Positions 4,510 through 41,319 of a stretch of 64,000 nt of DNA are shown one piece after another. The stretch is from the NCBI GenBank assembly GCA_039815185.1, contig JBCBZT010000027.1, forward strand, positions 1-64,000, written 5' to 3'. A program made the translations under genes and the position numbers. Origin of the DNA: Cyanobacteria bacterium P01_A01_bin.123 (lineage in GTDB: Bacteria; Cyanobacteriota; Cyanobacteriia; Phormidesmidales; Phormidesmidaceae). The notes under the pieces were generated by a model, which made no database searches, was not told where the DNA came from, and saw only the letters and a list, made by a program, of their open reading frames with translations. Position 1 is the first letter of the stretch; every line of letters starts with the position of its first letter.

Positions 4510-5583
4510 TTAGGATTGCCTAGCCGCATTGTTTCGACAGAGCTGCGTGTTGGGGTGTTCAGGGCCAACGGTGGCTTCAAAGCAGGCGATCGCCCGCTCA
4601 AAGAGTTCCCCTGCCTCCGTGCTCCGATCCATTTTCTGTAAGAGAGAAGCCAAATTATTGAGGCTAATGGCGACATCGGGATGTTCCGATCCCAAGAGGG
4701 TCTCTTTAAGCTCCAAGGCTCGACGATAGGCTTGCTCTGCTGACTCAAGCTCACCTTTGGCTTGCAATGAGGCGGCTAAATTATTGAGATTAATCGCAAT
4801 TTCATAGTGAATCGGGCCAAATTGCTGCTCAAAAAAGGCGATCGCGGCTTCAAAATAAGCGATCGCGTCGTCATACTGTTCCAGTCCATGCAGAATCGAA
4901 CCTAAGGCGGCTGCGTCGGCAATGGTTTTGGCATGATCAGCTCCCAGTAAATCCACATGGAGCTGATAGGACTTACGGGCATAGGGTTCGGCCTCGACAT
5001 AATGACGACGGGAATGGTTGAGCCCCCCTAAATTGTGATAAATCGTGGCGACCTCAATATGTTGCTCACCATGGCGCTCAATTAGCGCCGCCAGTGCGGT
5101 CTGGTAGAGGTCTTCCGCCGCCTCAAATTTGCCCCAGTATTTATAGACAATGGCTAAATCGTTGAGCAGCCGAATCCAAATGGGTTGATGACGTAGGCCC
5201 TGATCTTCAACGAGTTGAATGACTTGCTGAAAGACCTGTTCGGCCTGGGGATAGTGGCCCTGAATGCGGGCTAAGGTGCCTTGCTGAGACGAGAGTTTCA
5301 GCTCTAATGGCAACGAGATCTTGGCTGGATAGTTTGCTTTGATCTCGTTTAGGGCGAGTTGAGCAGCTTGGAGCTGAGTTTGGGCTTCGCCGTAGCGGGC
5401 TTGGGCTTCTAAGCTGGTAATCAAATGACTTTGCAGCTTCACCTGCAGTACCCAACCAACTGGAGTAGGGGGCAAGTCAGCCAGCAATTGCTTGCAAAGT
5501 GCTTCTGCCTCAGAGTGGTTATCTTGGGCCTGCAAGTGAGTGACTTGGTTCATTTGCAGTTGCCAATCACTTGTAGTAACCAT
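4510..5583 (-). CDS. Tetratricopeptide-repeat protein (kinesin-light-chain-like TPRs)
   Basis: Repeated HPDVAISLNNLA/IYHNLG units; start overlaps the stop of the upstream precursor (TGATG). Confidence 0.9.
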   Translation of the reverse strand: MVTTSDWQLQMNQVTHLQAQDNHSEAEALCKQLLADLPPTPVGWVLQVKLQSHLITSLEAQARYGEAQTQLQAAQLALNEIKANYPAKISLPLELKLSSQQGTLARIQGHYPQAEQVFQQVIQLVEDQGLRHQPIWIRLLNDLAIVYKYWGKFEAAEDLYQTALAALIERHGEQHIEVATIYHNLGGLNHSRRHYVEAEPYARKSYQLHVDLLGADHAKTIADAAALGSILHGLEQYDDAIAYFEAAIAFFEQQFGPIHYEIAINLNNLAASLQAKGELESAEQAYRRALELKETLLGSEHPDVAISLNNLASLLQKMDRSTEAGELFERAIACFEATVGPEHPNTQLCRNNAARQS

Positions 5584-5780
5584 CACGAATACTGTGTCTT
5601 GACCATCGTTTCATTATGGTTGCGGGGCAGACCAGCACCGACTATCTCAGTCAATGCTGCTTCACTCAGCTCCGTGATATCAAGTAGCTGCATGTCTGCA
5701 TCCCAGTCACTATCTGTTAAATCAATGTCTGAAAAAATTAACTCTAGTTGTGGTTTCTTAGCTTGGGATTGCTGTTTCAT
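5583..5780 (-). CDS. Single-cassette NHNET precursor peptide
   Basis: ITELSEAALTEIVGA-GLPR-NHNETM. Confidence 0.8.
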   Translation of the reverse strand: MKQQSQAKKPQLELIFSDIDLTDSDWDADMQLLDITELSEAALTEIVGAGLPRNHNETMVKTQYS

Positions 5781-5829
5781 CGGACTGACTCAATTAAGGA
5801 ATGTGCTAGATATATGTCGTATGCCACAT

Positions 5830-5861
5830 AGGGTATGGAGCAATCGAGAAGAATTCGGGAA
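5830..5861 (-). promoter_or_regulatory. Shared island promoter motif
   Basis: TTCCCGA-ATTC-TTCTCGATT-GCTCCA-TACCCT. Confidence 0.7.
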
Positions 5862-5864
5862 GCC

Positions 5865-5972
5865 CCCTACGAAGACATGAACATCACCGGGGTCACGGGC
5901 TTAAACGAAGCCCAAAAAGTAACACTGAAAGCCTTGGGGGCTGCGTCGGGCAACGACTTGGATAGGCTTTAA
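5865..5972 (+). pseudogene. 3'-end relic of a fourth NB-ARC-WD40 gene
   Basis: Encodes [26 protein letters not shown], matching the C-termini of the three intact paralogs. Confidence 0.8.
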
Positions 5973-5977
5973 CTCGA

Positions 5978-7228
5978 TCACTGAGCGTAATCGGCATCTT
6001 GAGTCACCTGCAGTCGGGCTGTGTTCAGGTAATGACCGATAAAGGCGTGGCTCGTGAGGCCAAAATCTGTGACCGCCAGCATAACCAGGGGCTTGTTAGC
6101 GGTATTTTTAACTTGGTGAGCGGCCCAACGCGGTACAAAAACAATATCGCCAGCGTTCACTTCCAATTGTTTCTGGCCAATCGAAGCGGTTCCTTGGCCT
6201 TGCTGAATCACTAGGAGTGCTTCGTGGGCATGACGATGACGCTCATTCGTTTTGTTGGGCGCAATCCTGACCAATCGTGGATCGAGGACTTCTGAGGGCG
6301 TCGTCAGTCGTTCAACGGTAAAATCAATGGTTTGTTTTCCCTGATTGCTTTGGTTGCGATAGAGGATAGCCCCTGACTGTCCGGCCTGATGGCGTAAGGT
6401 TTGATCACCATTACTGAGAGACTGTCGAGCCTGAATTTTTCCTAGTAATGGCTGAATTCGCCTCACCTGAAGCTGCTCATAAAGTGCAGTGAAGAACTGC
6501 TCACGCAAGTCTAAAGCTAAGGCCAACACACGATGGCAAGTTGCAAACCAGTTGGGTTCGCTAGCGTAAGAGAGCATAATGTTCTCTAAGGTCACGGCAT
6601 GGTTGTCATCACAGGCGATGTGGAGGTGAAAAAAGGTGAGATGCTCATCGGTCACTCCGGCTTGCTGTAGCCCTTGGACAAAAATTTCATACATTTGAGG
6701 CACAATGCCTTCGGTCCCCAAGGCTAAAAATGCAGCACTTGAACAGGCTGGCGATCGCAGGCAAAAACTGAGTACCTCATTCACAAACAGCTGAGTTGCT
6801 GGCTCAGGCTTTAACTCATCTAAAGCAATGCCTAAGCCCTGGGTCAAGAAGCGACGAAATAACTCAGCATGGCGTTGGTTTGGATCTGTTTCGCCACTTT
6901 CCTCCCAAAGATTTTCGACCAGTTGGGCGCGGTGTACATCGCTCTCTAAATTAGCCATTAACCCCGCTAAATAGCGCGTGAAGCTTTGAGCGTAAAAGGA
7001 GTACTGACCAAAAATAAACTGAAAATCATCGATACTCAAATGTCCTGCTTGGCACGCCCTAAAAAGAGGGTTTTGCCACAAGGAGTGGTTAGCTTGAAAC
7101 TCCCGCAGCTCTAATAATTTGGATGCAAGCTCAGTATTTGAGCAAGACTGATTGTAAAGTTGTTTGTTGTCTAATTTTAAGGATGGGAGTAACCTAGGAA
7201 ACTCTATTTTTTCAATCATCTGATCCAT
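5978..7228 (-). CDS. Heme-oxygenase-like diiron oxidase (TenA/PqqC/CADD-like) fused to a C-terminal cupin
   Basis: ENLWEESG..HAELF, LGTEG, FFHLHIACDDNHA ligand pattern; cupin HRHAHEA..GDIVFVPRWAAHQV. Confidence 0.85.
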   Translation of the reverse strand: MDQMIEKIEFPRLLPSLKLDNKQLYNQSCSNTELASKLLELREFQANHSLWQNPLFRACQAGHLSIDDFQFIFGQYSFYAQSFTRYLAGLMANLESDVHRAQLVENLWEESGETDPNQRHAELFRRFLTQGLGIALDELKPEPATQLFVNEVLSFCLRSPACSSAAFLALGTEGIVPQMYEIFVQGLQQAGVTDEHLTFFHLHIACDDNHAVTLENIMLSYASEPNWFATCHRVLALALDLREQFFTALYEQLQVRRIQPLLGKIQARQSLSNGDQTLRHQAGQSGAILYRNQSNQGKQTIDFTVERLTTPSEVLDPRLVRIAPNKTNERHRHAHEALLVIQQGQGTASIGQKQLEVNAGDIVFVPRWAAHQVKNTANKPLVMLAVTDFGLTSHAFIGHYLNTARLQVTQDADYAQ

Positions 7229-7364: not shown

Positions 7365-8810
7365 TTAAATGCCATACTCTTCAGGGCTGGCTTCAATACC
7401 ATTACCGACAATTGCCGCCAAATCCTCTCCACTGAGGTAAATGATCTGAGTTGATTGGGTTGGAGCAGACTCTTTGATATCGACTAGGGTTTCATTATGA
7501 TTTTCACCACAATCGTCTGGTGTGCAGCCACTACCACCACCACCACCACCTATACCGCCTACGATCGCTGCTAAATCTTTCACACCGAGTTCAATGATCT
7601 GAGTTGATTGGGCTTGAGTAGACTCTTTGATATCGACTAGCGTTTCATTATGGTTCCCACCACATGTCCACCGGGGACATTCGCTCCCACCTGCACCTGC
7701 GATCGCTTCCAAATCTTCCACACTGAGTTCAATTGGTTTTGTTTCTTGCGATTGAGTGGAGTCTTGGGTATGGATCAGCGTTTCATTGTGGTTAGTACCA
7801 CAAGTCCAAGGTGGACACTGACGATAACTGCCACCACCACCCATACCCCCAACGATCGCCTCCAAATCCTCTTCACTGAGGTAAATGATCTGAGTTGATT
7901 CGGTTTGAGTAGATTCTTTGATATCAATGAGCGTTTCGTTGTGGTTTTCACCACAATCATCTGGGGTGCAGCCATTACCACCACCACCATTACCTATACC
8001 GCCTACGATCGCATCCAAATCTTCTTCACTGAGTTCAATGATCTGGATTGATTGGATTGGAGCAGACTCTTTAATATCGACTAGCGTTTCGTTGTGGTTA
8101 ACCCCACATTCCTCTTCAGGACATGTTGTACCTCCTCTGAAACCGCCTGCGATCGCCTCCAAATCCTCTCCACTGAGATAAATGATCTGAGTTGATTGGG
8201 ATTGAGTAGAATTCGTATTGACCAACATTTCGTTATGGTTAACCCCACAGTGATCTGGAGGGCAATCAATACCACCTGCGATCGCCTCCAAATCTTCCAC
8301 ACTGAGTTCAATTGGTTCTGTTTCTTGCGATTGAGTGGAGTCTTGGGTATGGATCAGTGTTTCATTGTGGTTAGTACCACAAGTCCAAGGTGTACACTGA
8401 CGATCACCGCCACCACCCATACCCCCAAAGATCGCCTCCAAATCCTCTTCAGTGAGTTCAATGATCTGGTTTGATTCGGTTTGAGCAGCATCTGCAACAC
8501 TAATGATTGTTTCGTTGTGGTTTTCGCCACAATCATCTGGCGTGCAGCTAGTACCACCACCACCGTTACCGGCACCACCAACGATCGCCTCCAAATCTTC
8601 TTCACTGAGTTCAATGAGCTGGGTTGATTTGGATTGAGTAGCATCTGCAACACCAATGAGCGTTTCGTTGTGGTTGTCGGGCATTCCTGCGCCTACAATT
8701 GCCCCCAAATCCTCTTCGCTGAGTTCAATCAGTTCTGTATTGAGCTCAATCATTTGAGCGGGTTCAGGTTGAGTAGATTGAATCTTTAGGGGTACGTGGG
8801 TCTTTAACAT
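7365..8810 (-). CDS. Ten-module cassette precursor peptide (9 NHNE cassettes)
   Basis: Ten repeats of I(E/Y)LSxEDLxAIxG(G/A/N); eight cores carry CxxxxC; AAGGAG RBS. Confidence 0.9.
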   Translation of the reverse strand: MLKTHVPLKIQSTQPEPAQMIELNTELIELSEEDLGAIVGAGMPDNHNETLIGVADATQSKSTQLIELSEEDLEAIVGGAGNGGGGTSCTPDDCGENHNETIISVADAAQTESNQIIELTEEDLEAIFGGMGGGGDRQCTPWTCGTNHNETLIHTQDSTQSQETEPIELSVEDLEAIAGGIDCPPDHCGVNHNEMLVNTNSTQSQSTQIIYLSGEDLEAIAGGFRGGTTCPEEECGVNHNETLVDIKESAPIQSIQIIELSEEDLDAIVGGIGNGGGGNGCTPDDCGENHNETLIDIKESTQTESTQIIYLSEEDLEAIVGGMGGGGSYRQCPPWTCGTNHNETLIHTQDSTQSQETKPIELSVEDLEAIAGAGGSECPRWTCGGNHNETLVDIKESTQAQSTQIIELGVKDLAAIVGGIGGGGGGSGCTPDDCGENHNETLVDIKESAPTQSTQIIYLSGEDLAAIVGNGIEASPEEYGI

Positions 8811-8986
8811 CTGTCTTCTCCTTGTAAGGCTTGATTGGGATGATTAAATAATCGAAAAAATGAGGATGGGCTCTCAAACAGTATTGAGGCATTAGTTAAT
8901 AGTGCGATGGGTATTGGCGTAGCCCCTCCTGAGGGACTCGACCGACCCAAAAGAGCCATCGCACGTATTTGTTCTGTAAGTGATGA

Positions 8987-9427
8987 CTAACCCTCACTTA
9001 CAGGCTCATCATCTTCTTTACTTCTGCCACCACAGATCAGGGTTAAGTCCTCTGCTGAGAGTTTGACCAGCTTTGGCTGAGCAGAATTAGTTTTTTGGGT
9101 AGTCTCCAGTAGCGTTTCATTATGATTGAGCAGGATACCGTCGCCATGCTCGTTGTCATTTCCGCTACTATAGCCACCGACAATCGCCGCCAAATCTTCC
9201 ACACTGAGTTCAACAATCTGTGTTGATTGGGTTGGAGTAGACTCTTTAATATCGACTAGCGTTTCGTTGTGGTTGGCACTTACCGCATCACCACTAATAT
9301 CATCGCTGCCTTTACTTTCACTACTACCACCAACAATTACTTCCAGATTCTCCATACTGAGTTCTATGATTTGAGTGGGTTCAAGTTGAGTAGATTGAAT
9401 CTTTAGGGGTACGTGGGTCTTTAACAT
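8987..9427 (-). CDS. Three-module precursor (2 NHNET cassettes + terminal RSKEDDEPVSEG core)
   Basis: Leader repeats; N-terminus nearly identical to 7365..8810. Confidence 0.9.
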   Translation of the reverse strand: MLKTHVPLKIQSTQLEPTQIIELSMENLEVIVGGSSESKGSDDISGDAVSANHNETLVDIKESTPTQSTQIVELSVEDLAAIVGGYSSGNDNEHGDGILLNHNETLLETTQKTNSAQPKLVKLSAEDLTLICGGRSKEDDEPVSEG

Positions 9428-9602
9428 CTATCTTCTCCTTGTAAGGTTTGATTGGGATGATTAAATAATCGAAAAATGAGGATGGGCTCTCAATCAGTAT
9501 TGAGGCGTTAGTTAATAGTGCGACGGGTATTGGCGTAGCCACTCCTGAGGGACTCGACCGACCTAAAAGAGCCACCGCACTGATTTGTTCTGTCAGTGAT
9601 GA

Positions 9603-10031
9603 CTAACCCTCACCTATAGGCTCATCATCTTCTTTCCCTCTACCACCACAGATCAGGGTTAAGTCCTCTGCGGAGAGTGTGACAAGCTTAGGTTGGTCAG
9701 AAGCAGGTTTTGAAGGAGTACTCATGAGGGTTTCGTTGTGGTTCATACTGACACCATCACCATTTTCTGCTTCATAACTACCCTGGACACCGCCCAAAAT
9801 TTCTCCCAAGTCCTCCACACTCAGTTCAACGATTTCTTTTGATTTAGTTTGAGCAGGCTTTGCTTTGCTAATGATCGTTTCATTGTGGTTAAAGGCTACT
9901 TGACCGCCTGAGATTTCGGCCAAGTCTTCCTGGGTTAATTTAAGCAAATCTGCACTTGTGATCAAGTCACTTTCTGCTGGCTTAGCCTCTTCAAAAAGTA
10001 ACGCTAGTTCTTGCCGTAATTGATTGTTCAT
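9603..10031 (-). CDS. Three-module precursor (2 NHNET cassettes + terminal RGKEDDEPIGEG core)
   Basis: Leader repeats; AAGGAG RBS. Confidence 0.9.
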   Translation of the reverse strand: MNNQLRQELALLFEEAKPAESDLITSADLLKLTQEDLAEISGGQVAFNHNETIISKAKPAQTKSKEIVELSVEDLGEILGGVQGSYEAENGDGVSMNHNETLMSTPSKPASDQPKLVTLSAEDLTLICGGRGKEDDEPIGEG

Positions 10032-10575: not shown

Positions 10576-13500
10576 ATGCCTAGATCTGCCAAACAGTCGA
10601 AACGTAAACGCGGAGTGATTCTCTCTGTGACTGGTTGGCAGCGACTCCAAGCAGCACAGCATCAATCTGAGCACGCGCACAACGGCGGCAACCCCTACAC
10701 AATTGAGCACCTTAACGAACTGACTCAACTCAGTCCCAATACCCTAACCAAGGTGCGATCGCGCCAAGCCCCCGTCGATCACCAAACCTTAAAGGCTTAT
10801 TTCAAGAGCTTTGGGCTCACCCTTGCGCCCACCGACTATGAGCAACCTGACGCTCCAACCCATCAGACCGAGCCACCGGCAAGTCAACCCCCCTTATACT
10901 CAGCTTCCAATCCCCAGCAAGATTGGGGCGAAGCCATCGATGTCTCTGTCTTCCATGGGCGCACCCAAGAACTAGCCACCTTGAGCCAGTGGGTAACGCA
11001 AGATCACTGCCGTCTAATTGGCATCCTGGGTATGGGTGGCATCGGTAAAACGGCCCTGTCTGTGAAGTTGGCAGAACAGCTCCAAGCCCAGTTTGACTTG
11101 ATCATTTGGCGATCGCTGCGTAATGCCCCCACCCTAGAGTCCCTGCTGGGTGAGTTAGTGCCTTTTCTCTCCCATCAGCAAGCAACCGAGCCCACGGTTC
11201 GGCAGTTACTCCGATGTTTGCAAAACACTCGCTGTCTGGTGATTTTAGACAATGCAGAAACGATCTTGCAGGCCGGTAAAACCGGCTATTATCGCCCTGG
11301 CTACGAAAACTACGGTGACCTGCTGCGGGTAGTAGGCGAATCAGGGCATCACAGTTGCCTGATCCTCACCAGTCGTGAGAAGCCCAAAGAGATTGCCATG
11401 TTTGAAGGGGTGGAGCTGTCGGTGCGATCGCTCCCTTTGAGGGGCTCTCTAGAAATTGCTTTGGCGCTGATTGAGGCCACGGGCTTAGGAGGGACTACTG
11501 AGCAAAAACAAGCCCTTTGTCATCAATATGGATGCAGTCCGTTAGCGTTAAAGATTGTTGCCAGCTCGATTCAAGACTTATTTGAAGGCGATATTACGCA
11601 GTTTTTAGCCGAAGACGCCATTGTTTTTAACGGGGTGCGCCAATTGCTCGACCAGCAATTTGAGCGTCTCTCAGCGCTAGAACACAGTCTCATGTATTGG
11701 CTAGCGATTAATCGAGACTGGACTTTGATTTCAGAACTCGCTACCGATATCGTGCCCCAGATCCCCCGGTCTAAATTATTGGAGTCATTGGAATCACTCA
11801 GTTGGCGATCGCTGATTGAGAAACAATCCGGTCGCTACACCCAGCAGCCAGTGGTGATGGAATATGTGAGCGATCGCCTGATTGAACAAGTGTTTCGGGA
11901 CTTAACTGAACCCCATTCTCTGCTGCCCAGCAGCCTATTTAACCGCCACGCGCTATTAAAAACCACCGTCAAAGACTATGTCCGAGAAAGTCAGGTGAGG
12001 CTGATTTTGCAGCCGGTCATTCGTCAGTTAAAAACGACGATTGGTTTTTCCCCGGCGCTTGAACAACAACTCCAGACCGTCTTAACAGCCCTAAAAACAG
12101 CTCGCAGTCCTGGCTATGGCGGCGGCAATTTGATTAACCTGCTTCACTACCTCGGGGTTGACCTAACCGGCTACGACTTTTCTGAGCTGACTGTTTGGCA
12201 GGCCTATTTGCAGAGCGTTGAGTTACATCAGGTCAACTTTCAGAATGCCGACTTGACCCGCTGTGTCTTTACCCAAACTTTTGAAAGCCTGATTGCCCTC
12301 GCCTTTAGCCCCGATGGTCAATTATTAGCCACAGGCGATATGGATGGTGAACCTCGCCTGTGGCAGGTTTCTGACGGTCAGCCCATACAAACCTTTGAGC
12401 GGCATAAAGAAGCCATCTGGAGCGTTGCCTGGGCTCCCAATGGTCAAATGCTGGCCACCGGGAGCGAAGATCGAACCATTAAACTCTGGGACATCAAGAG
12501 TGGAGCCTGTTTGCGCACTTTGAAAAGTGCCTTGGCCATTCGGGCGATCGATTGGTCCCCTAATGGCCAGTGGTTAGCGAGCGGCGGGGATGATCAGCAG
12601 GTGCGGTTGTGGCAGGTTGCGACAGGGGAATGCGTTAGTACCCTGTCGGGACATATCGGTTGGGTCTATGCTGTGGCCTTTAGCCCCACCACCATCGAAG
12701 ACAGCAGCCCACTATTGGCTAGTGGGTCTTTTGATCAAACGATTCGTGTGTGGGATGTCACGACCCGTCGGTGTATTAATACCTTACAAGGTCATACCAG
12801 GGGCATTTGGTCAATCACCTGGAGCCCTGACAGTCAGCGCTTAGCCAGCGGCGGCGAAGATGCTCAGATTAAAGTATGGGACATCCCTAGCGGCCAATGC
12901 CTGATGACCCTATCAGGACATAAAAGCACTGTCGTCTCCGTCGCGTGGAGTCCCGATGGAAAAATCCTGGCGAGCGCTTCCTATGATCAAACCATTCGCC
13001 TGTGGGATGCTGCTAGTGGTCAATGTCTGGCTACTTTGCAAAGAGGCGATAACTTTGTCTGGGCCGTGGCCTGGCACCCTCTAAGCAATCTGTTTGCCAC
13101 TGGCTCCCATGATCGAACAATCAGATTTTGGGAACTTCGGAGTCGAGAATGTCGCCGCACGTTAGAGAGCTATACCAATCGGATTTGGGCTGTGGTTTGG
13201 AGCCCCGACGGCAAAAGCCTAGCGAGTTGCAGCAACGATTGCACCATTCGCTTGTGGCATCCCAGTAGTGGCCAGTGCCTAAAAACGCTACGAGGCCACA
13301 CCGGCTGGATCATAGGGTTAGATTGGAGCCCCGATGGCCAGACCCTAGTCAGCTGCTCAGATGACTGCACCATTCGTTTGTGGCAAGCCAGCACAGGGCA
13401 GTGTGTACAAATTTTAGAAGGCCATAGTTCTTGGATCTGGTCTGTAGCCTGGAGCCCAGATGGTCAACGCCTTGCCAGTGGCTCTGCCGATCAAACCGTG

Positions 13501-14172
13501 CGCATCTGGGATGTCGATAGCGGCCAATGCCTTTTGTGTCTTGAAGGACACAAAAACTGGGTGTGGGCTGTTGCTTGGAGTCCCGACGGTCAAGTCTTAG
13601 CCAGTGGTTGCGACGATCAAAAAATTCGCCTCTGGGATAGCCAGCAAGGGACTTGCCTTCAAGTCCTAGAAGGACATCGCAACTTCGTACGAACGGTTGC
13701 ATGGCAACCGGTTTGCCCAACCTCCCCAATAGAGACGGGACGTTTGCTCGCCAGCGGCAGTGATGACCTCGATATTCGCCTTTGGGACACCGATACGGGC
13801 ACCTGCCTGAACACCTTAACAGGGCATTCCGTCCACGTTCGAAAAGTGACCTGGCATCCGGACGGGGTGTTGTTGGCCAGCGGTAGCGCTGATTGCACCG
13901 TCAGGGTATGGGATACCGCCAGCGGTGAATGCCTCAACGTTCTGCAAGGTCACCAGGGAACTGTCTGGGCCGTTGCCTGGAGCCCAGATGGTCAAACGCT
14001 GGCCAGCAGTAGTACCGATGAAACAATCAAGCTGTGGGATACCGCTACAGGACAATGCCTGCAAACCCTTCGTTCCATGCGCCCCTATGAAGGCATGAAC
14101 ATTACCGGCGTCACGGGCCTCACAGCGGCCCAAAAAGCGACGCTGAAAGCCTTAGGGGCTGTCGAGTGCTAG
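10576..14172 (+). CDS. HTH-NB-ARC-pentapeptide-WD40 (STAND) protein
   Basis: N-terminal [24 protein letters not shown]-like region, Walker A GMGGIGKT, Walker B LVILDN, many WD40 repeats. Confidence 0.92.
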
Positions 14173-15219
14173 GCCGTGCATGCAAGGTTGATTTTCTAAC
14201 TGTCGCAAATTTGCCACCTGTCGGGCGGCTTCAACAGTAGAGATATCGCCATCTCTGGCACAGTCGAAAATGTCGATTAAGGTGCTATGAATGCCGTGAA
14301 TGTGCCCTTTGGCTCTGGCCGCTTGATAGCCAATCAGTTCGTGATAGACATTAATTAATCCACCCGCATTAATCACAAAATCAGGACAATAAAGCATCCC
14401 TTGCTGCTTGAGCAAATTAGTATCCCGACGTTCGTCCGCTAGCTGGTTGTTTGCACAGCCAGCAATAATGGGGGCTTGAATCTGACGTAGTGTCGCCGGG
14501 TTAATCACACCCCCTAACGCGCAGGGTGAAAAGACATCCACGGCCAACCCATAAATCTGATCTGGCGGGACAACTGTGGCCCGATAGCGCTGCTGGGCCA
14601 AGGCTGTTTTTTGTGCATCTAAATCACTCACAAAGAGCTGAGCACCGTGTAAACATAAATAATCACAGAGGGTTTGCCCGACGTTGCCTAAGCCTTGAAT
14701 GGCAACTTTTAAGTCACTCAGCGATCGCCCTGGCCAACGAAATGCCACGGCGGCTTTAATCCCCAATAAAACCCCTTGGGCTGTGGCGATCGCAGGCCCA
14801 CCCCCTTTGTCTTGCACGCCAACGACATAGTTGGTCACCTGATGCATAGTGCGGACATCCGCTGGGCCGAGGTTAACGTCTTGCCCGGTGATGAAGCGAC
14901 CGCCAAGACTCTCGACAACACGAGCGTAGGCTTGGAGTAGGGCTGCTGTTTTGGCCTCAGGATGGGCGATGATCACGCCTTTTGCACCGCCGACTGGGAT
15001 ATTGGCACAGGCGGCTTTATCGGTCATGCCTCGACTCAGACGCAAGACATCAGTCAGGGCCTCGGCTTCATTTTGGTAGGGCCAGAGTCGTGTGGCGCCC
15101 ATGGCCCGCCCAGGGGTGGTGTCATGCAAAGCGATGAAGGCCTTGAGCCCAGTTGTTTGGTCGTGGCAGTAAAGGACCTGCTCGTGGTCTAAGCTTTGAA
15201 TTGTTTGGACGCGTGTCAT
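14152..15219 (-). CDS. Glu/Leu/Phe/Val-family amino acid dehydrogenase, ScyB (tryptophan dehydrogenase)-like
   Basis: [56 protein letters not shown]; probable ATG 15219. Confidence 0.85.
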
Positions 15220-15290
15220 GGGTTTGAGGGGTTTTTGCAGGTAACGGTTGATGTTGGCGTAGCCTCTCCACCGGAGAGGCGCTTGTGGCG

Positions 15291-16703
15291 TTAGGCGCGG
15301 GCGCAAATCAATGACACCAGAGGCACGCCCTCGTAGTCGAAGTTGAGATAGCGATCGGCTTGCTTGTGGATACTGAGAATGGGGGAAATGATCAGGTCAT
15401 CGATGAAGGGCGTCTGCAAGGTATAGCCACTCTGCTTTAAGCGGTTGACCCACGATGCAGCGGTCTCATGGCGTTCAACTCGGGTTGTGTTGTCAACTTT
15501 GAGCACATCAATCACTTCACGGCCAAAAAAGCAGGTTTTTAAGCCAGCTTTGCTCTGCTCATCGATACCCAGCGCATCAATCATGTTGAACACGCTGCTG
15601 TAGTGACGCCAGCAATTGTGAAACCGAGTGCGAAAATCAGGCTCCAGATGATCGGTATTGGGTTCTGACAACACAATCAGGGTTGGGTTGAGCTGATGCA
15701 ATCGCTGCAGCACAGCGGTGCGAACGTCTTGTCTCGCAATATCGCAGATATGGTGGAGGGCAAAGGAGGCATTGATAATGGGGCAATTGCATTGGTGACT
15801 CAGTTGCTGCCAGGCTTGATTGTCGAGATCTTCAATGCCGTTGCAAAACGGGGTGAAGGTAACCTCAAATGGCAACCCATGGGCGGTGGCTAAAATCGCT
15901 TTTTGGGCCAGGGATAAACTTTGGATGGAGGGTTCGATGCCGATGATGTGAACCCGTTGGGGGCTTCTGCGCTTATGGGCTAGATGGTAGAGCAGCTCCA
16001 CCATTTGCCGCCCAGTGCCAATGCCAATATCAATCAGCGTGACGTCGTCGCGTCCGTCGCAGGCATCGATCATGAGACCCGTGGCCAGTTCGCTGACCAG
16101 TGAAACCAGGGGCACTTTGCTAGCCAACAGGTTGAACAGTTGAATTTGAGGGATTTGGTAGGGTTGCAGATAAAGGTTGGCTTTGTCGGCGATAGTGCCG
16201 GAGAGGTGCTCTGCCAGCGCACGGGCAAACACTAAGTGGTTGACTGCCTCGGGATGGGTGGCGGCGTTGAGCCTATCTAATAGTTGGTTTAATAGTTGTT
16301 GTGCCGTTCGCGTTTTGTGTTGAGCAATCAAATCTACCAGGTTGAAGAGCTGGGTCTCAGCGATTCTCTGTAGGAGAGGCTCCGCCAACGCTGCCAACTC
16401 ATCTTCTGTTAGCTCAATAAGTTGAAGCTTTTCAAGCTGAGAAGTCTCTACGGCATTGACTACCGTTTCATTGTGATTTTGACCACATTCCCAAGGCAGA
16501 CAATGATCTCCATCGCCTGGTTCACCACCCGCGATTCTCTGTAGGAGAGGCTCCGCCAACGCAGCTAATTCATCTTCCGTTAGCTCAATAGAAGTTGGTG
16601 ATGGTTCTAGATGATTTGACGGGGTCTGGCTAGCTGGTATCACAGCCATTTTGTTTGAGGGAACTTCTGTATTTGGGGCTAATGTTTTCAGGATCGGTTT
16701 CAT
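15291..16703 (-). CDS. Bacterial GRAS-domain protein fused to an N-terminal precursor cassette
   Basis: IDIGIGTGRQ, VHIIGIE, FALHH, LNPTLIVLSE, FFGREV, RVERHE..W GRAS motifs; N-terminus is leader-GG-EPGDGDHCLPWECGQ-NHNET-leader. Confidence 0.85.
   Translation of the reverse strand: MKPILKTLAPNTEVPSNKMAVIPASQTPSNHLEPSPTSIELTEDELAALAEPLLQRIAGGEPGDGDHCLPWECGQNHNETVVNAVETSQLEKLQLIELTEDELAALAEPLLQRIAETQLFNLVDLIAQHKTRTAQQLLNQLLDRLNAATHPEAVNHLVFARALAEHLSGTIADKANLYLQPYQIPQIQLFNLLASKVPLVSLVSELATGLMIDACDGRDDVTLIDIGIGTGRQMVELLYHLAHKRRSPQRVHIIGIEPSIQSLSLAQKAILATAHGLPFEVTFTPFCNGIEDLDNQAWQQLSHQCNCPIINASFALHHICDIARQDVRTAVLQRLHQLNPTLIVLSEPNTDHLEPDFRTRFHNCWRHYSSVFNMIDALGIDEQSKAGLKTCFFGREVIDVLKVDNTTRVERHETAASWVNRLKQSGYTLQTPFIDDLIISPILSIHKQADRYLNFDYEGVPLVSLICARA
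16365..16388. repeat. 24-nt small dispersed repeat inserted in a HIP1 site (in frame)
   Basis: GCGAT-[TCTCTGTAGGAGAGGCTCCGCCAA]-CGC; further copies at 16536, 19760, 38816 and a variant at 42915. Confidence 0.75.
16536..16559. repeat. 24-nt small dispersed repeat inserted in a HIP1 site (in frame)
   Basis: GCGAT-[insert]-CGC, adds LAEPLLQR to the leader. Confidence 0.75.
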
Positions 16704-16890: not shown

Positions 16891-17064
16891 TTATTTAGGT
16901 TCTGGTGTCCCACCGTGGCCATCACCACCATTACGAACGATATTGATTGGACCGCCAGCTATTAGCTCCAGTTCTGCGTTGGTCAACTGGATCAAGGTCT
17001 GAGATTGATCTGTTTTGCCTGAGGCTGCATAAGCAGCGAGTCGTTCTGTTTTTTGTTTAGTCAT
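16891..17064 (-). CDS. Small precursor, PINIVRNG class (57 aa)
   Basis: MTKQKTERLAAYAASGKTDQSQTLIQLTNAELELIAGG-PINIVRNGGDGHGGTPEPK. Confidence 0.8.
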   Translation of the reverse strand: MTKQKTERLAAYAASGKTDQSQTLIQLTNAELELIAGGPINIVRNGGDGHGGTPEPK

Positions 17065-17097
17065 GGAGGTAAAATTTATCTTTTCTAGATGTTTGTT

Positions 17098-17241
17098 TTA
17101 ACCGCCATTCCCAGGTTTTTCCCTTACGATGAAGCCCCCGACTATGCCATCTAGCTGTACTAAACTGAGTGACTGAAGTTTTGATAGGTGTTTTGGGTTC
17201 TGCGATTGTGAGTCTATTGCTTTTGGTTTGTTTTTGTTCAT
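17098..17241 (-). CDS. Small double-Gly precursor (47 aa)
   Basis: MNKNKPKAIDSQSQNPKHLSKLQSLSLVQLDGIVGG-FIVREKPGNGG; GAGG RBS. Confidence 0.75.
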   Translation of the reverse strand: MNKNKPKAIDSQSQNPKHLSKLQSLSLVQLDGIVGGFIVREKPGNGG

Positions 17242-17344
17242 CTTGATAACCTCTAAAAAATCTAAATCTAGCTGAAAATTTGGCTCAATACTTGAGGGAG
17301 ACTAAGAATTATTAGACTTCAAATCAACTCAGAATCTCTTCTCG

Positions 17345-17512
17345 CTATTCAGGTACTGGTGCTCCACCGTGGCCACCAGTACCATTACGAACGATATTGA
17401 TTGGGCCACCAGCTATTAGCTCCAGCTCTGCGTCGGTTAGCTGGATTAAAGATTCTAGGAGAGGAGTAGATTGGACTTGATTGAGTTGTGGTTTGCTTGT
17501 GTTTTTAGGCAT
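17345..17512 (-). CDS. Small precursor, PINIVRNG class (55 aa)
   Basis: MPKNTSKPQLNQVQSTPLLESLIQLTDAELELIAGG-PINIVRNGTGGHGGAPVPE. Confidence 0.8.
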   Translation of the reverse strand: MPKNTSKPQLNQVQSTPLLESLIQLTDAELELIAGGPINIVRNGTGGHGGAPVPE

Positions 17513-17630
17513 GATCTTTCTCCCTGAGGTGTAGAGTCTTTGTGCCTGAAACTGGCTGTTGATTGAAAATTTTTGCGATGTGATGGCCCAAAAGGGCCAC
17601 CGCGGCCATCTACTCTAGCCAAGATTTAGA

Positions 17631-17768
17631 TTAATCAGCATCTACGGGGTCATCATCCTCTTTTGGCCTACCGCCAGCTATTAGCTCTAGGTCAGCTTCT
17701 GAGAGTTTTTGCGGCAGATTATTGGCTGACTTAGCAGATTGGATTGGAGTAAGTTTTGGGTTGTTCAT
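17631..17768 (-). CDS. Small precursor, KEDD class (45 aa)
   Basis: MNNPKLTPIQSAKSANNLPQKLSEADLELIAGG-RPKEDDDPVDAD. Confidence 0.85.
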   Translation of the reverse strand: MNNPKLTPIQSAKSANNLPQKLSEADLELIAGGRPKEDDDPVDAD

Positions 17769-17801
17769 GAGAATTTATCCTGAGTCATAAACAGATCAGT
17801 T

Positions 17802-17939
17802 TTAACCTTCGTCTATAGGCTGATTATCCTCCTTTGGCTTACCACCAGCGATCAAGCTAAGGTCAGCTTCTGAGAGTTTTTCCAGCAGATTATTTGCTGA
17901 TTTATCAGATTGATTTGGAGTGGGTTTTGTGTTTTTCAT
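17802..17939 (-). CDS. Small precursor, KEDD class (45 aa)
   Basis: MKNTKPTPNQSDKSANNLLEKLSEADLSLIAGG-KPKEDNQPIDEG. Confidence 0.85.
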   Translation of the reverse strand: MKNTKPTPNQSDKSANNLLEKLSEADLSLIAGGKPKEDNQPIDEG

Positions 17940-18012
17940 GAGTAATTTTTCCTGAGTCATAAATGGACAGAACGGACGCTTTTATTGTCAAATCTGGATC
18001 ACTTTCAATCCA

Positions 18013-18043
18013 GTCCCCTCCAAGCTTGGGGGGTTAGGGGGGC
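18013..18043. repeat. Dispersed GC-rich palindromic repeat (CCCC..TTGGGGGGxTAGGGGGGC)
   Basis: Related copies near 20414-20506, 39025-39122 and, inverted, inside lanM at about 47928-47954. Confidence 0.6.
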
Positions 18044-18084
18044 ACGCTAGATGGAACGCCCGAATACTTAGATATCGTTGCGAA

Positions 18085-18222
18085 TTACTCGCCATCTATG
18101 GGCTGATCATCTTCTTTGGGCTTACCGCCAGCAATCAAGGAAAGATCAGCTTCTGAGAGTTCTTGAATGGTCTTGCTGATGAGCTTTGTTGTTTCAGTTT
18201 GCTTAGATTTTGGGTTGTTCAT
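18085..18222 (-). CDS. Small precursor, KEDD class (45 aa)
   Basis: MNNPKSKQTETTKLISKTIQELSEADLSLIAGG-KPKEDDQPIDGE; GGAG RBS. Confidence 0.85.
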   Translation of the reverse strand: MNNPKSKQTETTKLISKTIQELSEADLSLIAGGKPKEDDQPIDGE

Positions 18223-18253
18223 GGGTCATTTCTCCAAATGTTGTTGTTGCCGA

Positions 18254-18391
18254 TTATTCTTCACCAATGGGTCTATCATCCTCTTTGGATTTACTACCAC
18301 AGATGAGAGATAAGTCATCTCCTGAGAGTTCTTGTAGCAATTCGGAAGGAAAAGTTTTGGGTTGAATATGTGTGGGTTTTGTATTGTGCAT
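18254..18391 (-). CDS. Small precursor, KEDD class (45 aa)
   Basis: MHNTKPTHIQPKTFPSELLQELSGDDLSLICGS-KSKEDDRPIGEE; AGGAG RBS. Confidence 0.85.
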   Translation of the reverse strand: MHNTKPTHIQPKTFPSELLQELSGDDLSLICGSKSKEDDRPIGEE

Positions 18392-18520
18392 GAGTTGTTT
18401 CTCCTGAGTAATAAATGAATCTGTTTCAGCTTTAATTCTTCTAGATTAGGCAGGGGCGGTTGCACTTTAAAGATAGAGTGCGATCACCTTGTTCTGCCCT
18501 AGTTTGAATGCCGTTGCAGA

Positions 18521-18658
18521 TTAATCACTGTCTATGGGGTCATCATCCTCTTTGGGCTTGCCACCAGCAATAAGAGCTAGGTCCTCTGCTGAGAGTTCTT
18601 GAAGCAACTCTGCCGGGAGAGTTGGGGGTTGGGTTTGCATAGGTTTTGGATTGTTCAT
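18521..18658 (-). CDS. Small precursor, KEDD class (45 aa)
   Basis: MNNPKPMQTQPPTLPAELLQELSAEDLALIAGG-KPKEDDDPIDSD; GGAG RBS. Confidence 0.85.
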   Translation of the reverse strand: MNNPKPMQTQPPTLPAELLQELSAEDLALIAGGKPKEDDDPIDSD

Positions 18659-18689
18659 AGTTCATTTCTCCAAATGTTGTTGTTGCCAA

Positions 18690-27204: not shown

Positions 27205-27516
27205 CTACTCGGATAGGGTTGAACTCAATAACTGAGCGTAATCGGCATCCTGAGTCACATGCATCCGAGCTGTTTTCAGGTAATGACCGATGAAAGCTTG
27301 ACTTGTTAAACCAAAATCTGTGATAGCCAGCATGACTAGTGTCTCATTACCAGTGTTTTTAACTTGGTGAGCTGCCCAACGCGGTACAAAAATAATATCG
27401 CCAGCATTCACATTCAATTGGGTATGGTCAATCGAAGCGGTTCCTTTGCCTTGCTGAATAATCAGCAGTGCTTCGTGGGCATGGCGATGACGCTCATTCG
27501 TTTTGTTGGGGGCAAT
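27205..27516 (-). pseudogene. 3' relic (cupin part) of a second HDO-cupin gene, truncated next to an IS
   Basis: IAPNKTNERHRHAHEALL..GDIIFVPRWAAHQVKN..TQDADYAQ matches 5978..7228. Confidence 0.88.
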
Positions 27517-27593
27517 GCAGCACGTGCGTGAAAACTGACTTGAATATTGGGTTAATTAGCAGCTATCAACCGACCTCAGAGCTGGTAAGCCCT

Positions 27594-28709
27594 TTAAACA
27601 GCAGCATCCGTGCTGATCTCTTGCTTTTGCCAGAATACGAAACGCTTGAGGTTGTAGGTTAAGTTTTTGAGCCCTAACATCACCTTCGCCCTAGCTAGGC
27701 CAATTGTCCGAATCGCCTTGCCACCCATCTCATTGACCATCGTGCCAAAGACATGTTCTACCTTGGCTCTGGTCTTCGAACGCTCCCGGTTGTCTGCTCT
27801 CTGCGCTTCACTCAAAGGGCGGTTACGGTAGGCGCGCTCGTTGATGTGGCTGATAAATCCCATCCAACTCAGAACTTCGACTATCGCTGCTGATAGGTAA
27901 GCACTATCTGCCCACAATTCATCGTCGCTGTTGTCAGCCTCGAGCAGGTGCCCGAGAACCTGTGAATCATGCACTGCTGCATCGGTGACCTGATAGCGAC
28001 GGATGAAGCCGTACCCAGCATCGCGATTGATGTGGTTCTTGTAACCGTAGTGAGACAACCCCATTCTTCTTGGCCCACCGCGCGTCCATGTCCTTTTGCA
28101 ACAGCTTATGCGGCTTATCTTGCCAGTCTTCGGGTACCTCGCCCTGCTTAATTTGTGCATTCTCTGCTTTGTTATTGCGCTGCTTAGGCACCGGCACCAG
28201 CGTTGCATCGATAATCTGACCGCACTGGGCTTGATAGCCTGCCGTATTCAGATATGCCCCAAATTGCTCAAACAATCCTTCGACGAGCCCCTGCCGTCGA
28301 AGCTCGTCCTTGAACGACCACACCGTCTTGGCATCAGGAACCCTATCTTCGAGTCCCAGGTGCAGAAATCGCATAAATGAAAGCCGGTCGTTGACCTGAT
28401 ACTCCAGTTCATCATCGGAGATGTTGTACATTTGCTGGAGTATCAGAAGCTTGAACATCAAGATGATATCTATCGGCTTGCGGCCTGCCCGACTCTTGCG
28501 AGGCTTAGCGTAGATGCTCTCAAGCGTGGGGCGGAACGTTTCCCACGGCACCAACTCATCGAGGTCGACCAGAAATTCTTTTTTCTCTGCCAGTTTTTGA
28601 TGTCGCTCACTAAAGTCCCAGAACCCTTGTTGACCCATTGGCTTGAACACTGCATGAATGCCGATACAATCTCATATTTAGACTGCTTTCGCAATTAATC
28701 GAGGTGCCC
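27594..28709 (-). mobile_element. IS5-family element with frameshifted transposase
   Basis: ORFs 27967..28650 and 27594..28208 join to one transposase (DRLSFMRFL, IIDATLV, HYGYKNH, ADSAY, RAKVEHVFG) with one extra base at 28059-28062; probable end GAGGTGCCC at 28701-28709, opposite IR not seen. Confidence 0.88.
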
Positions 28710-38650: not shown

Positions 38651-38926
38651 TTATTCGAGTGAACGGGGCGTGGTGCTATCTCTAGCGGGACTCTGACAAT
38701 TTAGTTGAAGTTTTTCAAGCTGAGAAGTCTTTACGGTGTTGACTACTGTTTCATTGTGGTTAGTACCACACATCCAAGAAGGACAACCGCCATCATAATT
38801 AACACCGCCCGCGATTCTCTGTAGGAGAGGCTCCGCCAGCGGCTTCAAATCTTTCTCACTCAGTTCAATAATCTGAACAGGCTTGGAAGCTGTCGGTTTT
38901 GGATTCCGTTTAGAATTTTTCTGCAT
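38651..38926 (-). CDS. Truncated/chimeric single-cassette NHNET precursor
   Basis: ATG 38926 with AGGAG RBS; core VNYDGGCPSWMCGT-NHNET; breaks off at start of a second leader. Confidence 0.75.
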   Translation of the reverse strand: MQKNSKRNPKPTASKPVQIIELSEKDLKPLAEPLLQRIAGGVNYDGGCPSWMCGTNHNETVVNTVKTSQLEKLQLNCQSPARDSTTPRSLE

Positions 38927-39159
38927 AGTTTTTCTCCTTAATTGAGACGTTAATTGGGTGTTGCTGAATCGAGAGATGAATTTGCCAAAGTGGTGCACTC
39001 TGCTTTGTCCCTTTTCATATATTCCTGGGGGGCTTTAAGCCCCCTTTCTGGTATGCCCCTTGGGCTATATTCTGGGGGACTTTGAAAGGTTTATTCCCCC
39101 AGAATGGGGGGGCTAGGGGGGTTAAGTCATACCGCTATTCAGCAACGCCAGAAGTTGAA

Positions 39160-39399
39160 TCATCCCTCAAGACATCGTGGGCTACCAGACCAGCCCCCTG
39201 ATATTGCCAAAAGATCTGTTTCGCTTAGCGGCTCTAACTGGTTTTGCAGTAGTTGGTAGAGGCAATCATTAGAGAACTGATAGCCCTTTTCAGCGCCAGC
39301 GCTTTTAATCAGCGCGATCACTTCTAGTAGACTATTCGTTTCCTTGATTTTCTGTCGCAATTGCGCGTCACTGAGCAACGCTTTGATTTGGCTTAGCAT
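39160..39399 (-). CDS. Nif11-leader lanthipeptide-type precursor (79 aa), copy 2
   Basis: Same WSGSPRCLEG core as 20543..20782. Confidence 0.85.
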   Translation of the reverse strand: MLSQIKALLSDAQLRQKIKETNSLLEVIALIKSAGAEKGYQFSNDCLYQLLQNQLEPLSETDLLAISGGWSGSPRCLEG

Positions 39400-39519
39400 A
39401 ATGCTTATCTCCTTTTGCAATGAAGGTAAAATTGTACAAATCTTGATTGATTTTGTGAGGCGCGATCGTGTGCTAAAGGCAGCGCGCGATCGCCCGCTCT
39501 GCTCTAGCCAAGACGCGAA

Positions 39520-39762
39520 TTATTCTTCACCAATGGGGTCATCATCCTCTTTGGATTTCCCACCACAGATGAGGGCTAAGTCATCTTCTGAGAGTTCTTG
39601 AATGGACTTGTTGTTGATAGCTTTACTCGCCATCGTTTCATTGTGGTTTGCCAAGTCAACACCTGCACCGACGATCGCTTCTAAATCCTTCTCCATCAAT
39701 TCAACAATTTCAGGGGATTTAGGGGGCGTTTTTTGAGGCTTTTGCTTTGATTTCTTCTTCAT
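39520..39762 (-). CDS. Two-module precursor (NHNET cassette + KSKEDDDPIGEE core)
   Basis: Paralog of 20899..21144. Confidence 0.88.
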   Translation of the reverse strand: MKKKSKQKPQKTPPKSPEIVELMEKDLEAIVGAGVDLANHNETMASKAINNKSIQELSEDDLALICGGKSKEDDDPIGEE

Positions 39763-39826
39763 GATTTTTTCTCCTTAATAGAAGGTTTTTTTCTAAGTCT
39801 AAGAATTGCCTTCTTGACTTGGTTTT

Positions 39827-39858
39827 ACTGTATTAAATAATCGGGAATAAGTAGGGAA
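39827..39858 (-). promoter_or_regulatory. Shared island promoter motif
   Basis: TTCCCTA-CTTA-TTCCCGATT-ATTTAA-TACAGT. Confidence 0.75.
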
Positions 39859-40023
39859 GAAAAATGCTTTTAGAGCAGGTTTTTTGAGCTATTTTTCCAT
39901 ATAAAAAGCGATCGCATTTAGCAAATCAATAATGCGATTGCTTTCGTTATTTATGACAATGATTAATGATGATTGACCTGGCCACCAGCCATTGTCAATC
40001 CGAAATCCTTAACCTTATGCCGC

Positions 40024-40860
40024 CTAAAAAACCTTGCAACTAAGTGCAAGCATCTCATCTAGAAAACTGTCATAGGCATCCCAAACGGCCTGCATCTTTA
40101 AGTTGATTAGATCGTGGGGCGCACTCAGTTGTTCTAATCGGCGCGTTAACTGCATCACATCGCCAGCATGATCAGCCTCAACTGCGATATATCGCCTCAG
40201 CCAAGCTAAATCATAGGCAGAAATTGCCTGGGTTCGTTCGATTTGGGCTTGAATTGCTAATGCTAATTGATAGGCACAAATCTTGCCCGCGAGTAACGCC
40301 CCCAGGGCTAAGAACGGCTCTTGATCGGTGTAGTAACCTTCAAGTTGTTGCTTTAGATTTGTCCCTGGACTCTTAATCGCAACGGTATCAAACTGACTAG
40401 CTGGAACAGGTTGCAATCGCCGCCAGGGATTGAGGGCGTAATAAAGCCGATCAAACAACACGCGATGAATTCGTTCAGGCTTGCCATGGCCCAGCTCATC
40501 GTAGAGCTGCCGGACCAAAACACAGCTAATGATTTCATCGTCAATGTGGCAGAGCATCGTTGAGAGCCACTGGGCCATATTGCTGTGGACCTGCCGCAGA
40601 TTATGGAAAAGCAACCATAGGCTGGTGAGATCCAGCGGTTTGGCCTGGAGCCACTCAAAGTAAGGATGGGTGGCAACCTCCCTGTGCTCGAAGGACTTGA
40701 TCAGGATTTCTAAACTTTGGGGGTAATCCATAGACGGGTGCCCATTCATGAGCTGGCCTGTCACAACACCGGAGGGCTGGGGTTCAATTAGGGTTAAGGT
40801 TTGATGGGCCATCTTGTTTTCCTGATGTGCAGATACGCGATTGATCTTTGGAGGGCACAA
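40024..40860 (-). CDS. Heme-oxygenase-like protein with degenerate ligands, copy 2
   Basis: Near-identical to 21397..22245; alternative ATG at 40812. Confidence 0.75.
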   Translation of the reverse strand: MCPPKINRVSAHQENKMAHQTLTLIEPQPSGVVTGQLMNGHPSMDYPQSLEILIKSFEHREVATHPYFEWLQAKPLDLTSLWLLFHNLRQVHSNMAQWLSTMLCHIDDEIISCVLVRQLYDELGHGKPERIHRVLFDRLYYALNPWRRLQPVPASQFDTVAIKSPGTNLKQQLEGYYTDQEPFLALGALLAGKICAYQLALAIQAQIERTQAISAYDLAWLRRYIAVEADHAGDVMQLTRRLEQLSAPHDLINLKMQAVWDAYDSFLDEMLALSCKVF

Positions 40861-41319
40861 CTATTGCTCAATTCTGCTCATCATCGTTTCATTGTGGTTT
40901 AGGCCGCAGTTGTCAATCTCGCCACACTCATCTCCGCAACCACCACCTGCGATCTTTTCTAGATCTTCTTCACCTAGTTCAGCGATCTGAGCTGACCCGG
41001 ATTGAATAGATGCTGTTGTATTGACTATCGTTTCGTTATGATTAGCTCCTAACTCAGGGTCTGTACTATGACCAGAACCACTTGCGATCGCCGCTAAGTC
41101 TTCCTCACTTAGTTCAATGATTTGGACTGACTTAGATTGAGTGGTGGCTTGCAAATTTTTAACCGCATTAACCATCGTTTCATTATGGTTATAGCCTAAA
41201 GCACCTCCTGCAATTCCCTCTAGATCTTCTTCTGCTAATTCAATTAGTTTTTGTGGTGAGATTTGAGCAGCAGAGGGCTGTTTTTTAGGCTTGGTTTGAT
41301 GTTGTTTAAGAATTGTCAT
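40861..41319 (-). CDS. Three-cassette NHNET precursor
   Basis: Probable ATG 41319; cores ALGY, GHSTDPELGA, GCGDECGEIDNCGL. Confidence 0.88.
   Translation of the reverse strand: MTILKQHQTKPKKQPSAAQISPQKLIELAEEDLEGIAGGALGYNHNETMVNAVKNLQATTQSKSVQIIELSEEDLAAIASGSGHSTDPELGANHNETIVNTTASIQSGSAQIAELGEEDLEKIAGGGCGDECGEIDNCGLNHNETMMSRIEQ

Follow-up and report, generated by a model that had tools for sequence, protein, structure and literature searches.

The question raised by this locus is which protein reads a short peptide motif that is nearly invariant next to hypervariable cores, and to what end. The window, that is, the whole stretch of 64,000 nucleotides of Cyanobacteria bacterium P01_A01_bin.123 analyzed here, covers the initial 64 kb of a contig of 107 kb (JBCBZT010000027.1) in a genome of 8.1 Mb. 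It contains precursor-peptide genes built of cassettes, each comprising a leader, a variable core and the motif Asn-His-Asn-Glu-Thr (NHNET). The constant partner of NHNET precursors is a kinesin-light-chain-like tetratricopeptide repeat (TPR) protein. The peptide-tag/TPR module is real and apparently undescribed, and may represent a two-part system that processes or senses tagged secreted peptides.

The original prediction, made from the DNA letters, listed 31 cassettes in 11 genes (30 NHNE and one NHNK). The recount gave the same figures: 31 cassettes in 11 minus-strand open reading frames (ORFs) between positions 5583 and 41319, with NHNET in 28, NHNEM in two and NHNKT in one. Each cassette has its own leader of the [EKGY]LxxxxL...Ix[GAS][GAE] type, ending in GG (19), GA (8), SG (2), AG (1) or GE (1); the predicted GG and GA ends were thus recovered, while no GS end was found. 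The cores are highly variable, as stated, with 30 distinct sequences among 31, and their length ranges from 4 to 18 amino acids (aa) rather than the proposed 4–17. A Cys pair of the form C-x4/5-C-G-x is present in 14 of the 31 cores. The six frames of the window contain 31 occurrences of NHNE (30 inside cassettes and one unrelated), where the remainder of the genome predicts 0.13. Variation of the motif codons is largely synonymous (AAC/AAT 23/8, CAC/CAT 22/9, AAT/AAC 21/10), and amino-acid changes affect only 3 of 155 codons. No NCBIfam or Pfam model matches the motif, which agrees with the earlier proposal of an undescribed peptide family; the only models found were leader-type bacteriocin models, several of them above the cut-off in two long repeat precursors. 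In the ESM Atlas no named cluster was found for a precursor (best 0.89).

The same leader also precedes cassettes lacking NHNET, 16 of which are present in the window, including five placed at the end of NHNET genes. Another conserved type of core, K/R-x-KEDD-x-P, occurs in 12 copies (16891–19569 and the ends of five NHNET genes), and three PINIVRNG cores are carried by this leader as well; a pattern search of the other checked loci and proteins found neither core type. Two additional NHNET-like precursors, one interrupted by a stop codon, are located on contig C16 of the same genome. Within the window, a 2.36 kb segment (20228–22579) is repeated at 38846–41195 with 92% identity. In contigs from a related sample that correspond to positions 7500–9750, cassettes are joined in other orders and contain new core letters; as the contigs were matched at 85% likeness, they suggest strain-level cassette shuffling only weakly.

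Beyond the window, a profile built from 28 cassettes (the other three of the 31 have long leader insertions and were excluded) revealed 274 matches among 1.84 billion representative proteins. The pattern [NQ]HN[EQ]T is present in 143 of the best 150 matches, in 121 of these in at least two copies. The consensus reads G-hydrophobic-small-x-[N/Q]-H-N-[E/Q]-T-hydrophobic-V; the first Asn is replaced by Gln in 15%, the His-Asn pair is 98–99% fixed, and for 116 of the 181 motifs scored, the core between leader end and motif is 4 aa long. The leaders of the matches are unrelated to each other, being of the double-Gly, ELEEVIAP/LEERIAP, KVKxxVKAG and Sec-like types, the last judged by hydropathy only. 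A scan of metagenome DNA yielded, among the matches listed, precursors of 40 aa with a signal peptide and the ending x4-NHNETLVRD, together with larger folded proteins that terminate in an NHNET tag. Since the motif is found behind four or more leader/export types that are unrelated to each other, the repetition of a GG leader is peculiar to this locus and does not define the family, a point on which the original prediction needs correction. NHNET is a portable tag. The proposal that it serves as a follower, a cleavage signal or a modified site holds in so far as it appears to be a conserved recognition element behind a hypervariable core. The system is rare in cyanobacteria, with only one of 400 other genomes matching the strict pattern, and that match (G327) resembles chance.

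Other constant cassette motifs, namely FNPQP[DE]PP, TPSIPIPPP and LLPAVQKVREAAAR, were observed beside NHNET in precursors and tagged proteins of loci L101, L132, L284, L287, L299, L306, L122, L128, L160, L268 and L271. NHNET is located at the C terminus of larger proteins in L145, L166, L217, L218 and L329 (10276–10818); these proteins look Hcp-like and ComFB-like. The tag-ended protein of L145 has no Pfam match.

The TPR gene lies just to the left of the span considered in the original prediction, and its ATG overlaps the stop codon of the first precursor (TGATG). Clustering of neighboring genes at motif loci placed the family homologous to this protein in the top cluster. Among the matches listed, 77 metagenome loci had flanks; 14 were set aside by eye as chance and 63 remained. 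A TPR gene is located within 2 kb downstream on the same strand in 21 of the 33 loci with a flank of at least 1 kb, versus 0 of 11 comparable chance loci, and is present in 9 of 30 loci with shorter flanks. The reverse search, with a TPR-signature pattern independent of the motif, detected it in 40 of 201 genomes of Blastocatellia (the class of G418), and reversed-pattern controls gave 0. Of the 45 places considered (one in an unpublished genome was excluded), 37 contain the motif, upstream in 36 and downstream in one. At least two motif matches were found in 25 of 39 genomes with the TPR versus 3 of 160 without it (a hand count excluding two unpublished genomes, in a comparison of kin and incomplete genomes).

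Among named organisms, TPR matches are assigned to Moorena producens JHB and Nostoc sp. TCL26-01, and Minicystis rosea contains both precursor and TPR. The signature is also present in one of 251 Myxococcota genomes, about 1 kb behind its NHNET array, and in a phylum-wide sample of Acidobacteriota the strict signature pattern was found in none of 201. In the source genome, one of 11 similar TPR loci carries the signature, and motifs are nearby only at that locus. Within the family of the source organism, orthologues occur in 4 of 172 other genomes; in two of these (G900 and G901) the gene immediately upstream encodes an NHNET precursor. Only generic TPRs (29–39% identity) were found on plasmids, among 25 matches listed, and the ESM Atlas places the partner in generic TPR clusters. 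The TPR clades broadly track the leader class (FastTree, supports not shown), and E/Q covariation of the motif with TPR residues is limited to one clade.

At the Blastocatellia places, the recurring neighbors are export and processing genes: a cluster of M50-type peptidase-HlyD fusions in 16 loci, mostly with ELEEVIAP leaders, HlyD in 14 loci and C39-type ABC transporters in 15 loci, mostly with KVK and GG leaders. Genes for ECF sigma factors and kinases also recur, as does an SdpB-like pair (3 loci). No widely shared tailoring enzyme was found among the recurring neighbors of the 45 places, and L336 is a bare precursor-TPR pair. The kit that recurs outside cyanobacteria is precursor, TPR and exporter or peptidase.

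The model of the TPR protein is all-helical (pLDDT 96) and closest to kinesin light chain and APPBP2; NCBIfam gave only sub-cut-off matches, including FxsT and HaaT. Of the 117 rows of the family alignment (113 of them distinct), 116 have K145, 117 have H180, 115 have H187 and 115 have D220, a conservation that is partly circular because the rows were selected by H180/G184 or D220. The full K145/H180/H187/D220 set is missing from nine generic TPRs. The variable groove positions are 189, 229, 257, 258 and 262. Modeled together with the 36 C-terminal aa of the overlapping precursor, the TPR gave a complex scoring 0.81, and the best of three controls gave 0.01; of 157 solved complexes 116 attain the mark applied, and of 215 mismatched pairs 2 do so, a calibration only roughly applicable because our own alignments were used. 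At least 96% of contacts agree between runs, and the pLDDT of the partner is at least 69. The most certain predicted contacts are those of the motif itself: the first Asn with I142/H180/N181/G184, His with G184/I261, the central Asn with G184/H187/A223/A226/N265 and Thr with N264/N265/A268. Residues after Thr are placed at N306/N307 and the hydrophobic residue at -3 at N138/T177. The list of contacts does not include D220, which is what a residue of the second shell would show. Gene linkage and the predicted complex together make it very probable that the TPR binds the NHNET motif.

What follows from binding is less certain. We tentatively favor the reading, possible but short of probable, that the TPR matures the peptides by acting at His-Asn without a cofactor. 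It is preferred because a single TPR is confronted with 30 cores and, in other genomes, the precursors are spread across several loci, the pattern of promiscuous enzymes acting on peptides that are made by the ribosome and modified after translation (RiPPs); because no tailoring enzyme is widely shared; because an invariant Lys/His/His/Asp set surrounds His-Asn; and because the His-Asn pair is almost fixed while the first Asn accepts Gln. NHNET would then be the recognition sequence right behind the variable core, and a single dedicated TPR would read all cassettes of a genome. The arrays encode multi-cassette precursors, and the TPR would bind each motif as an extended strand with both Asn side chains in groove pockets. 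His-assisted Asn cyclization is the reaction of intein C termini; by analogy, His187 and the His180-Asp220 pair could promote cyclization of the central Asn without a cofactor, so that the follower would be cut off and core-NHN freed. A succinimide, if formed, might be hydrolyzed or closed onto the new N terminus. A leader-matched peptidase or exporter, as gene linkage suggests, would remove the leader and secrete the peptides: C39-ABC with HlyD for GG and KVK leaders, the M50-type peptidase-HlyD fusion for ELEEVIAP, and Sec for signal peptides. The broadest form of this proposal, a TPR fold acting as a cofactor-free, trans-acting asparagine peptide lyase or ligase on a portable tag, which would define a new class of peptides whose leaders and export routes can be exchanged and whose tag is also found on folded proteins, is doubtful.

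Several observations weigh against a maturase. The TPR family has no invariant Cys or Ser nucleophile; to our knowledge TPR folds are binders, not catalysts, and we know of no precedent for TPR catalysis. An invariant ligand explains the invariant residues equally well. The complex score may owe to likeness to solved kinesin light chain-peptide complexes, and both alignments were author-made and motif-selected. In L100, L103, L126, L135, L152 and L168 the 40-aa precursor is Sec-like and the TPR has no signal, which fits a receptor. The linkage is also incomplete: 12 of 33 testable precursor loci have no TPR nearby, and 8 of 45 TPR places have no motif (one of them has only 546 nt upstream). 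The orthologues of G985 and G026 (76% and 83% complete) lack an NHNET neighbor; in G985 a GG peptide without the motif lies at the TPR gene and one tagged ORF is elsewhere, and in G026 no convincing NHNET copy was found. No C39 transporter is encoded in this island, the two of the genome being on other contigs. Finally, 15 of 120 TPR matches are fused to a SET domain and one to a GT2 domain, as an adaptor might be. The C-terminal SET fusions are P0273–P0278, P0299, P0301, P0307, P0330, P0331, P0335, P0353, P0363 and P0372; R189 is replaced in them by Ala, Ser or Val, and a search without a positive control did not find their genomic context.

An unlikely alternative to maturation is cell-cell signaling of the RRNPP type, in which exported and trimmed peptides are re-imported or sensed at the membrane and the TPR is a receptor with protein contacts or a fused output. 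The literature describes a five-point signature of these systems (PMC10075063), their helix-turn-helix (HTH) or 3HB domains and Firmicutes range (PMC9765709) and tandem pheromone copies in Rap-Phr (PMC11343458). As in Rap-Phr, NprR-NprX, PlcR-PapR, AimR-AimP and Rgg-SHP, a small exported propeptide lies beside a groove-binding TPR of 250–500 aa, and tandem copies exist. The Sec-type loci, with a small propeptide, a Sec-like signal and an adjacent TPR of that size, appear to show the five-point signature. In the window, the 65-aa precursor overlapping the TPR start falls within the 10–100 aa of adjacent RRNPP propeptides, and the 357-aa TPR_12/TPR_10 protein within the receptor range; most other precursors of the window are longer and not adjacent to the TPR. 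The high score of the predicted complex would suit a receptor, and SET fusions could be outputs. However, the window precursors carry double-Gly-type leaders instead of Sec (or PptAB/SHP) signals, and Pfam and NCBIfam scans revealed no HTH, the extra N-terminal helices of the window TPR not being examined as an output; AP-type TPRs, about 290 aa long, consist of repeats only. In contrast to RRNPP systems, the NHNET system occurs in diderm hosts, namely cyanobacteria, Blastocatellia and Myxococcota, not Firmicutes; its repeats are of the kinesin light chain type, the peptide gene comes first and the dedicated C39/M50 exporters after. The motif is invariant across phyla, 30 cores face one TPR, and the tag also terminates folded secreted proteins, all of which argues against a receptor.

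Still less likely is a non-catalytic adaptor, chaperone or anchor that holds, protects and delivers tagged cargo, or tethers tagged secreted proteins to the membrane. K145, H180 and H187 are kept in the SET and GT2 fusions, TPRs with a hydrophobic N terminus pair with Sec-exported or tag-ending proteins (L101, L116, L129, L146, L156 and L306), and cassettes are fused to GRAS. The best sequence and fold matches, kinesin light chain and APPBP2, have a peptide groove with an Asn ladder; the cargo residues N287 and R251 reported for KLC2 in PMC5450233 would map to N265 and position 229 of the TPR. Unlike kinesin light chains, the family is bacterial, encoded in peptide operons, with H180/G184/H187/D220/A222-A223 in place of the generic Asn pair. 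Against an adaptor, the bare pair L336 has no delivery target, and no SET-fused gene turned up among motif loci. A toxin/immunity arrangement, with NHNET peptides as unmodified inhibitors sequestered by the TPR, is improbable. The order precursor, small gene, HlyD and C39 transporter, like the two-gene Sec versions, is the arrangement of class II bacteriocin loci, and the weakly supported reshuffling of cassettes between strains would fit. The cores, however, are short, often acidic or Gly-rich and non-amphipathic, and no target is evident. A role of NHNET as substrate or follower for one of the classical enzymes of the span (HDO, LanM, ATP-grasp or GRAS), as the original prediction implied, is very improbable and largely refuted as a general account. 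Such genes are interspersed with the precursors here, and G900 and G901 likewise contain LanM, GRAS and ScyB; yet GRAS, both HDOs, ScyB, ATP-grasp and LanM have no tblastn match in any non-cyanobacterial motif locus, LanM of the relatives has its own Nif11-type Cys/Thr precursors nearby, and 17 of the 31 cores are devoid of the Cys of class II lanthipeptides. HDO was rejected as the NHNET enzyme: neither the motif nor the TPR signature is present in 80 HDO-cupin loci (best 80 of 290), in which GRAS, ScyB and LanM were likewise not found. These genes are lineage-specific co-residents. An amyloid or structural-repeat role is given a low probability because leader-matched peptidases and exporters accompany the arrays.

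Other known peptide systems share single features with the module. Cyanobactins, in which the core is followed by the AYDG recognition sequence and processed by PatG, likewise have hypervariable cores flanked by a constant follower and many cores per processing protein; NHNET cores, in contrast, each have their own leader and a TPR as the constant partner, and no PatA/PatG protease or heterocyclase was found among 39 ORFs scanned. Double-Gly leaders and C39-ABC with HlyD are shared with class II bacteriocin/microcin and NHLP export operons, which differ by the lack of multi-leader polyproteins, constant motif and soluble TPR partner. The M50-type HExxH neighbor resembles the daptide M50 peptidase (NF041824 match below cut-off), and no daptide tailoring genes were seen among the recurring neighbors. 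TPR genes beside RiPP precursors are also known as FxsT, HaaT, AmmC2 and BipC, of which AmmC2 is described as probably non-chemical (PMC12424672) and BipC is annotated as a TPR (PMC12707348); FxsT and HaaT are much longer, and here the TPR is the one constant gene.

Full-text searches for NHNET and NHNE (among the matches listed) and topic searches found no description of the module, with subscription papers and supplements outside their view; these peptides could be listed among the precursors in supplements of RiPP-mining studies. Current annotation does not reveal the module, since it leaves the precursors unnamed and calls the partner just a TPR protein; nonetheless, roughly one in five of the Blastocatellia genomes searched has the TPR signature. 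If the TPR is catalytic, its fold would be new among enzymes of peptide maturation, and tag and enzyme together would make a compact tool tolerating almost any core. If it is a receptor, TPR-peptide signaling, described for Firmicutes, would extend to cyanobacteria, Acidobacteriota and myxobacteria.

The features of the island are listed in the table below.

Table. Precursor, partner and accessory genes of the NHNET island (positions in the window).
Position	Strand	Feature	Remarks
4510–5586	-	Kinesin-light-chain-like TPR protein, about 357 aa	Pfam TPR_12/TPR_10; signature HNLGGLxH...ADAAAL
5583–5780	-	Single-cassette precursor, GA-GLPR-NHNETMV, 65 aa	Immediately upstream of TPR gene; last 36 aa used in complex model
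5978–7228	-	HDO (PF14518)-cupin fusion within operon; not an obligate partner	Pfam
7365–8810	-	Nine-cassette precursor, eight cores of CxxxxCGx type	
8987–9427	-	Precursor, two NHNET cassettes and terminal RSKEDDEP cassette	
9603–10031	-	Precursor, two NHNET cassettes and terminal RGKEDDEP cassette	
14152–15306	-	ScyB-like amino-acid dehydrogenase behind GRAS fusion; cyanobacterial accessory	
15291–16703	-	One cassette (CLPWECGQ-NHNET) fused to bacterial GRAS (methyltransferase-fold) domain	Pfam GRAS, E 4.8e-42
16891–19569	-	Eleven stand-alone mini-genes, same leader, no NHNET	7 K/R-x-KEDD/N-x-P, 3 PINIVRNG, 1 FIVREK
19604–20308	-	Four cassettes (one NHNKT) and terminal RTKEDDEP cassette	P0125 among profile matches
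20899–21144	-	One NHNET cassette and terminal RSKEDDDP cassette	
21397–22245	-	Second, divergent HDO-like protein; rare, accessory	Copy at 40024–40860
22246–23133	-	Six-cassette precursor, one NHNEM	
38651–38998	-	Truncated precursor, one cassette	
39520–39762	-	One NHNET cassette and terminal KSKEDDDP cassette	Within 2.36 kb duplication
40861–41319	-	Three-cassette precursor	P0128 among profile matches

The second HDO has only one homologue outside. Similar GRAS fusions are P0127 and P0137, and the order GRAS-ScyB-precursor recurs in G901; cassettes with CxPWxCG cores are fused to or located beside GRAS and a ScyB-like dehydrogenase in the window fusion, in P0127 and P0137 and in L328. The GRAS domain may methylate peptides, namely the cores at its own N terminus. 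An MvdD-like ATP-grasp protein (2573–3664) is accompanied by its own two small PLFxLLL-leader peptides (PLFxxxL type; 3888–4055 and 4153–4314), with which it probably forms a graspetide pair with unusual cores; no ATP-grasp match was found in motif loci elsewhere.

Each precursor block is fronted divergently by STAND-type WD40 proteins (10576–14172, 23485–27117 and 41600–45376; 54269–57859 on contig C16), which are probable regulators. A single run of genes at 45425–58827 codes for a FAAL-desaturase, ACP, two reductases, a pyruvyl-transferase-like protein, acyl-CoA ligase, a Rieske protein and LanM; similar genes, together with men genes and DUF2515, flank the NHNET loci of G900 and G901. Short leader peptides with a one-Cys core, without an NCBIfam match, are encoded at 20543–20779 and 39160–39420, and their leaders are presumably Nif11-like. 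A fragment 85% like the 3' end of the HDO-cupin gene is located at 27191–28650, beside an IS5 transposase.

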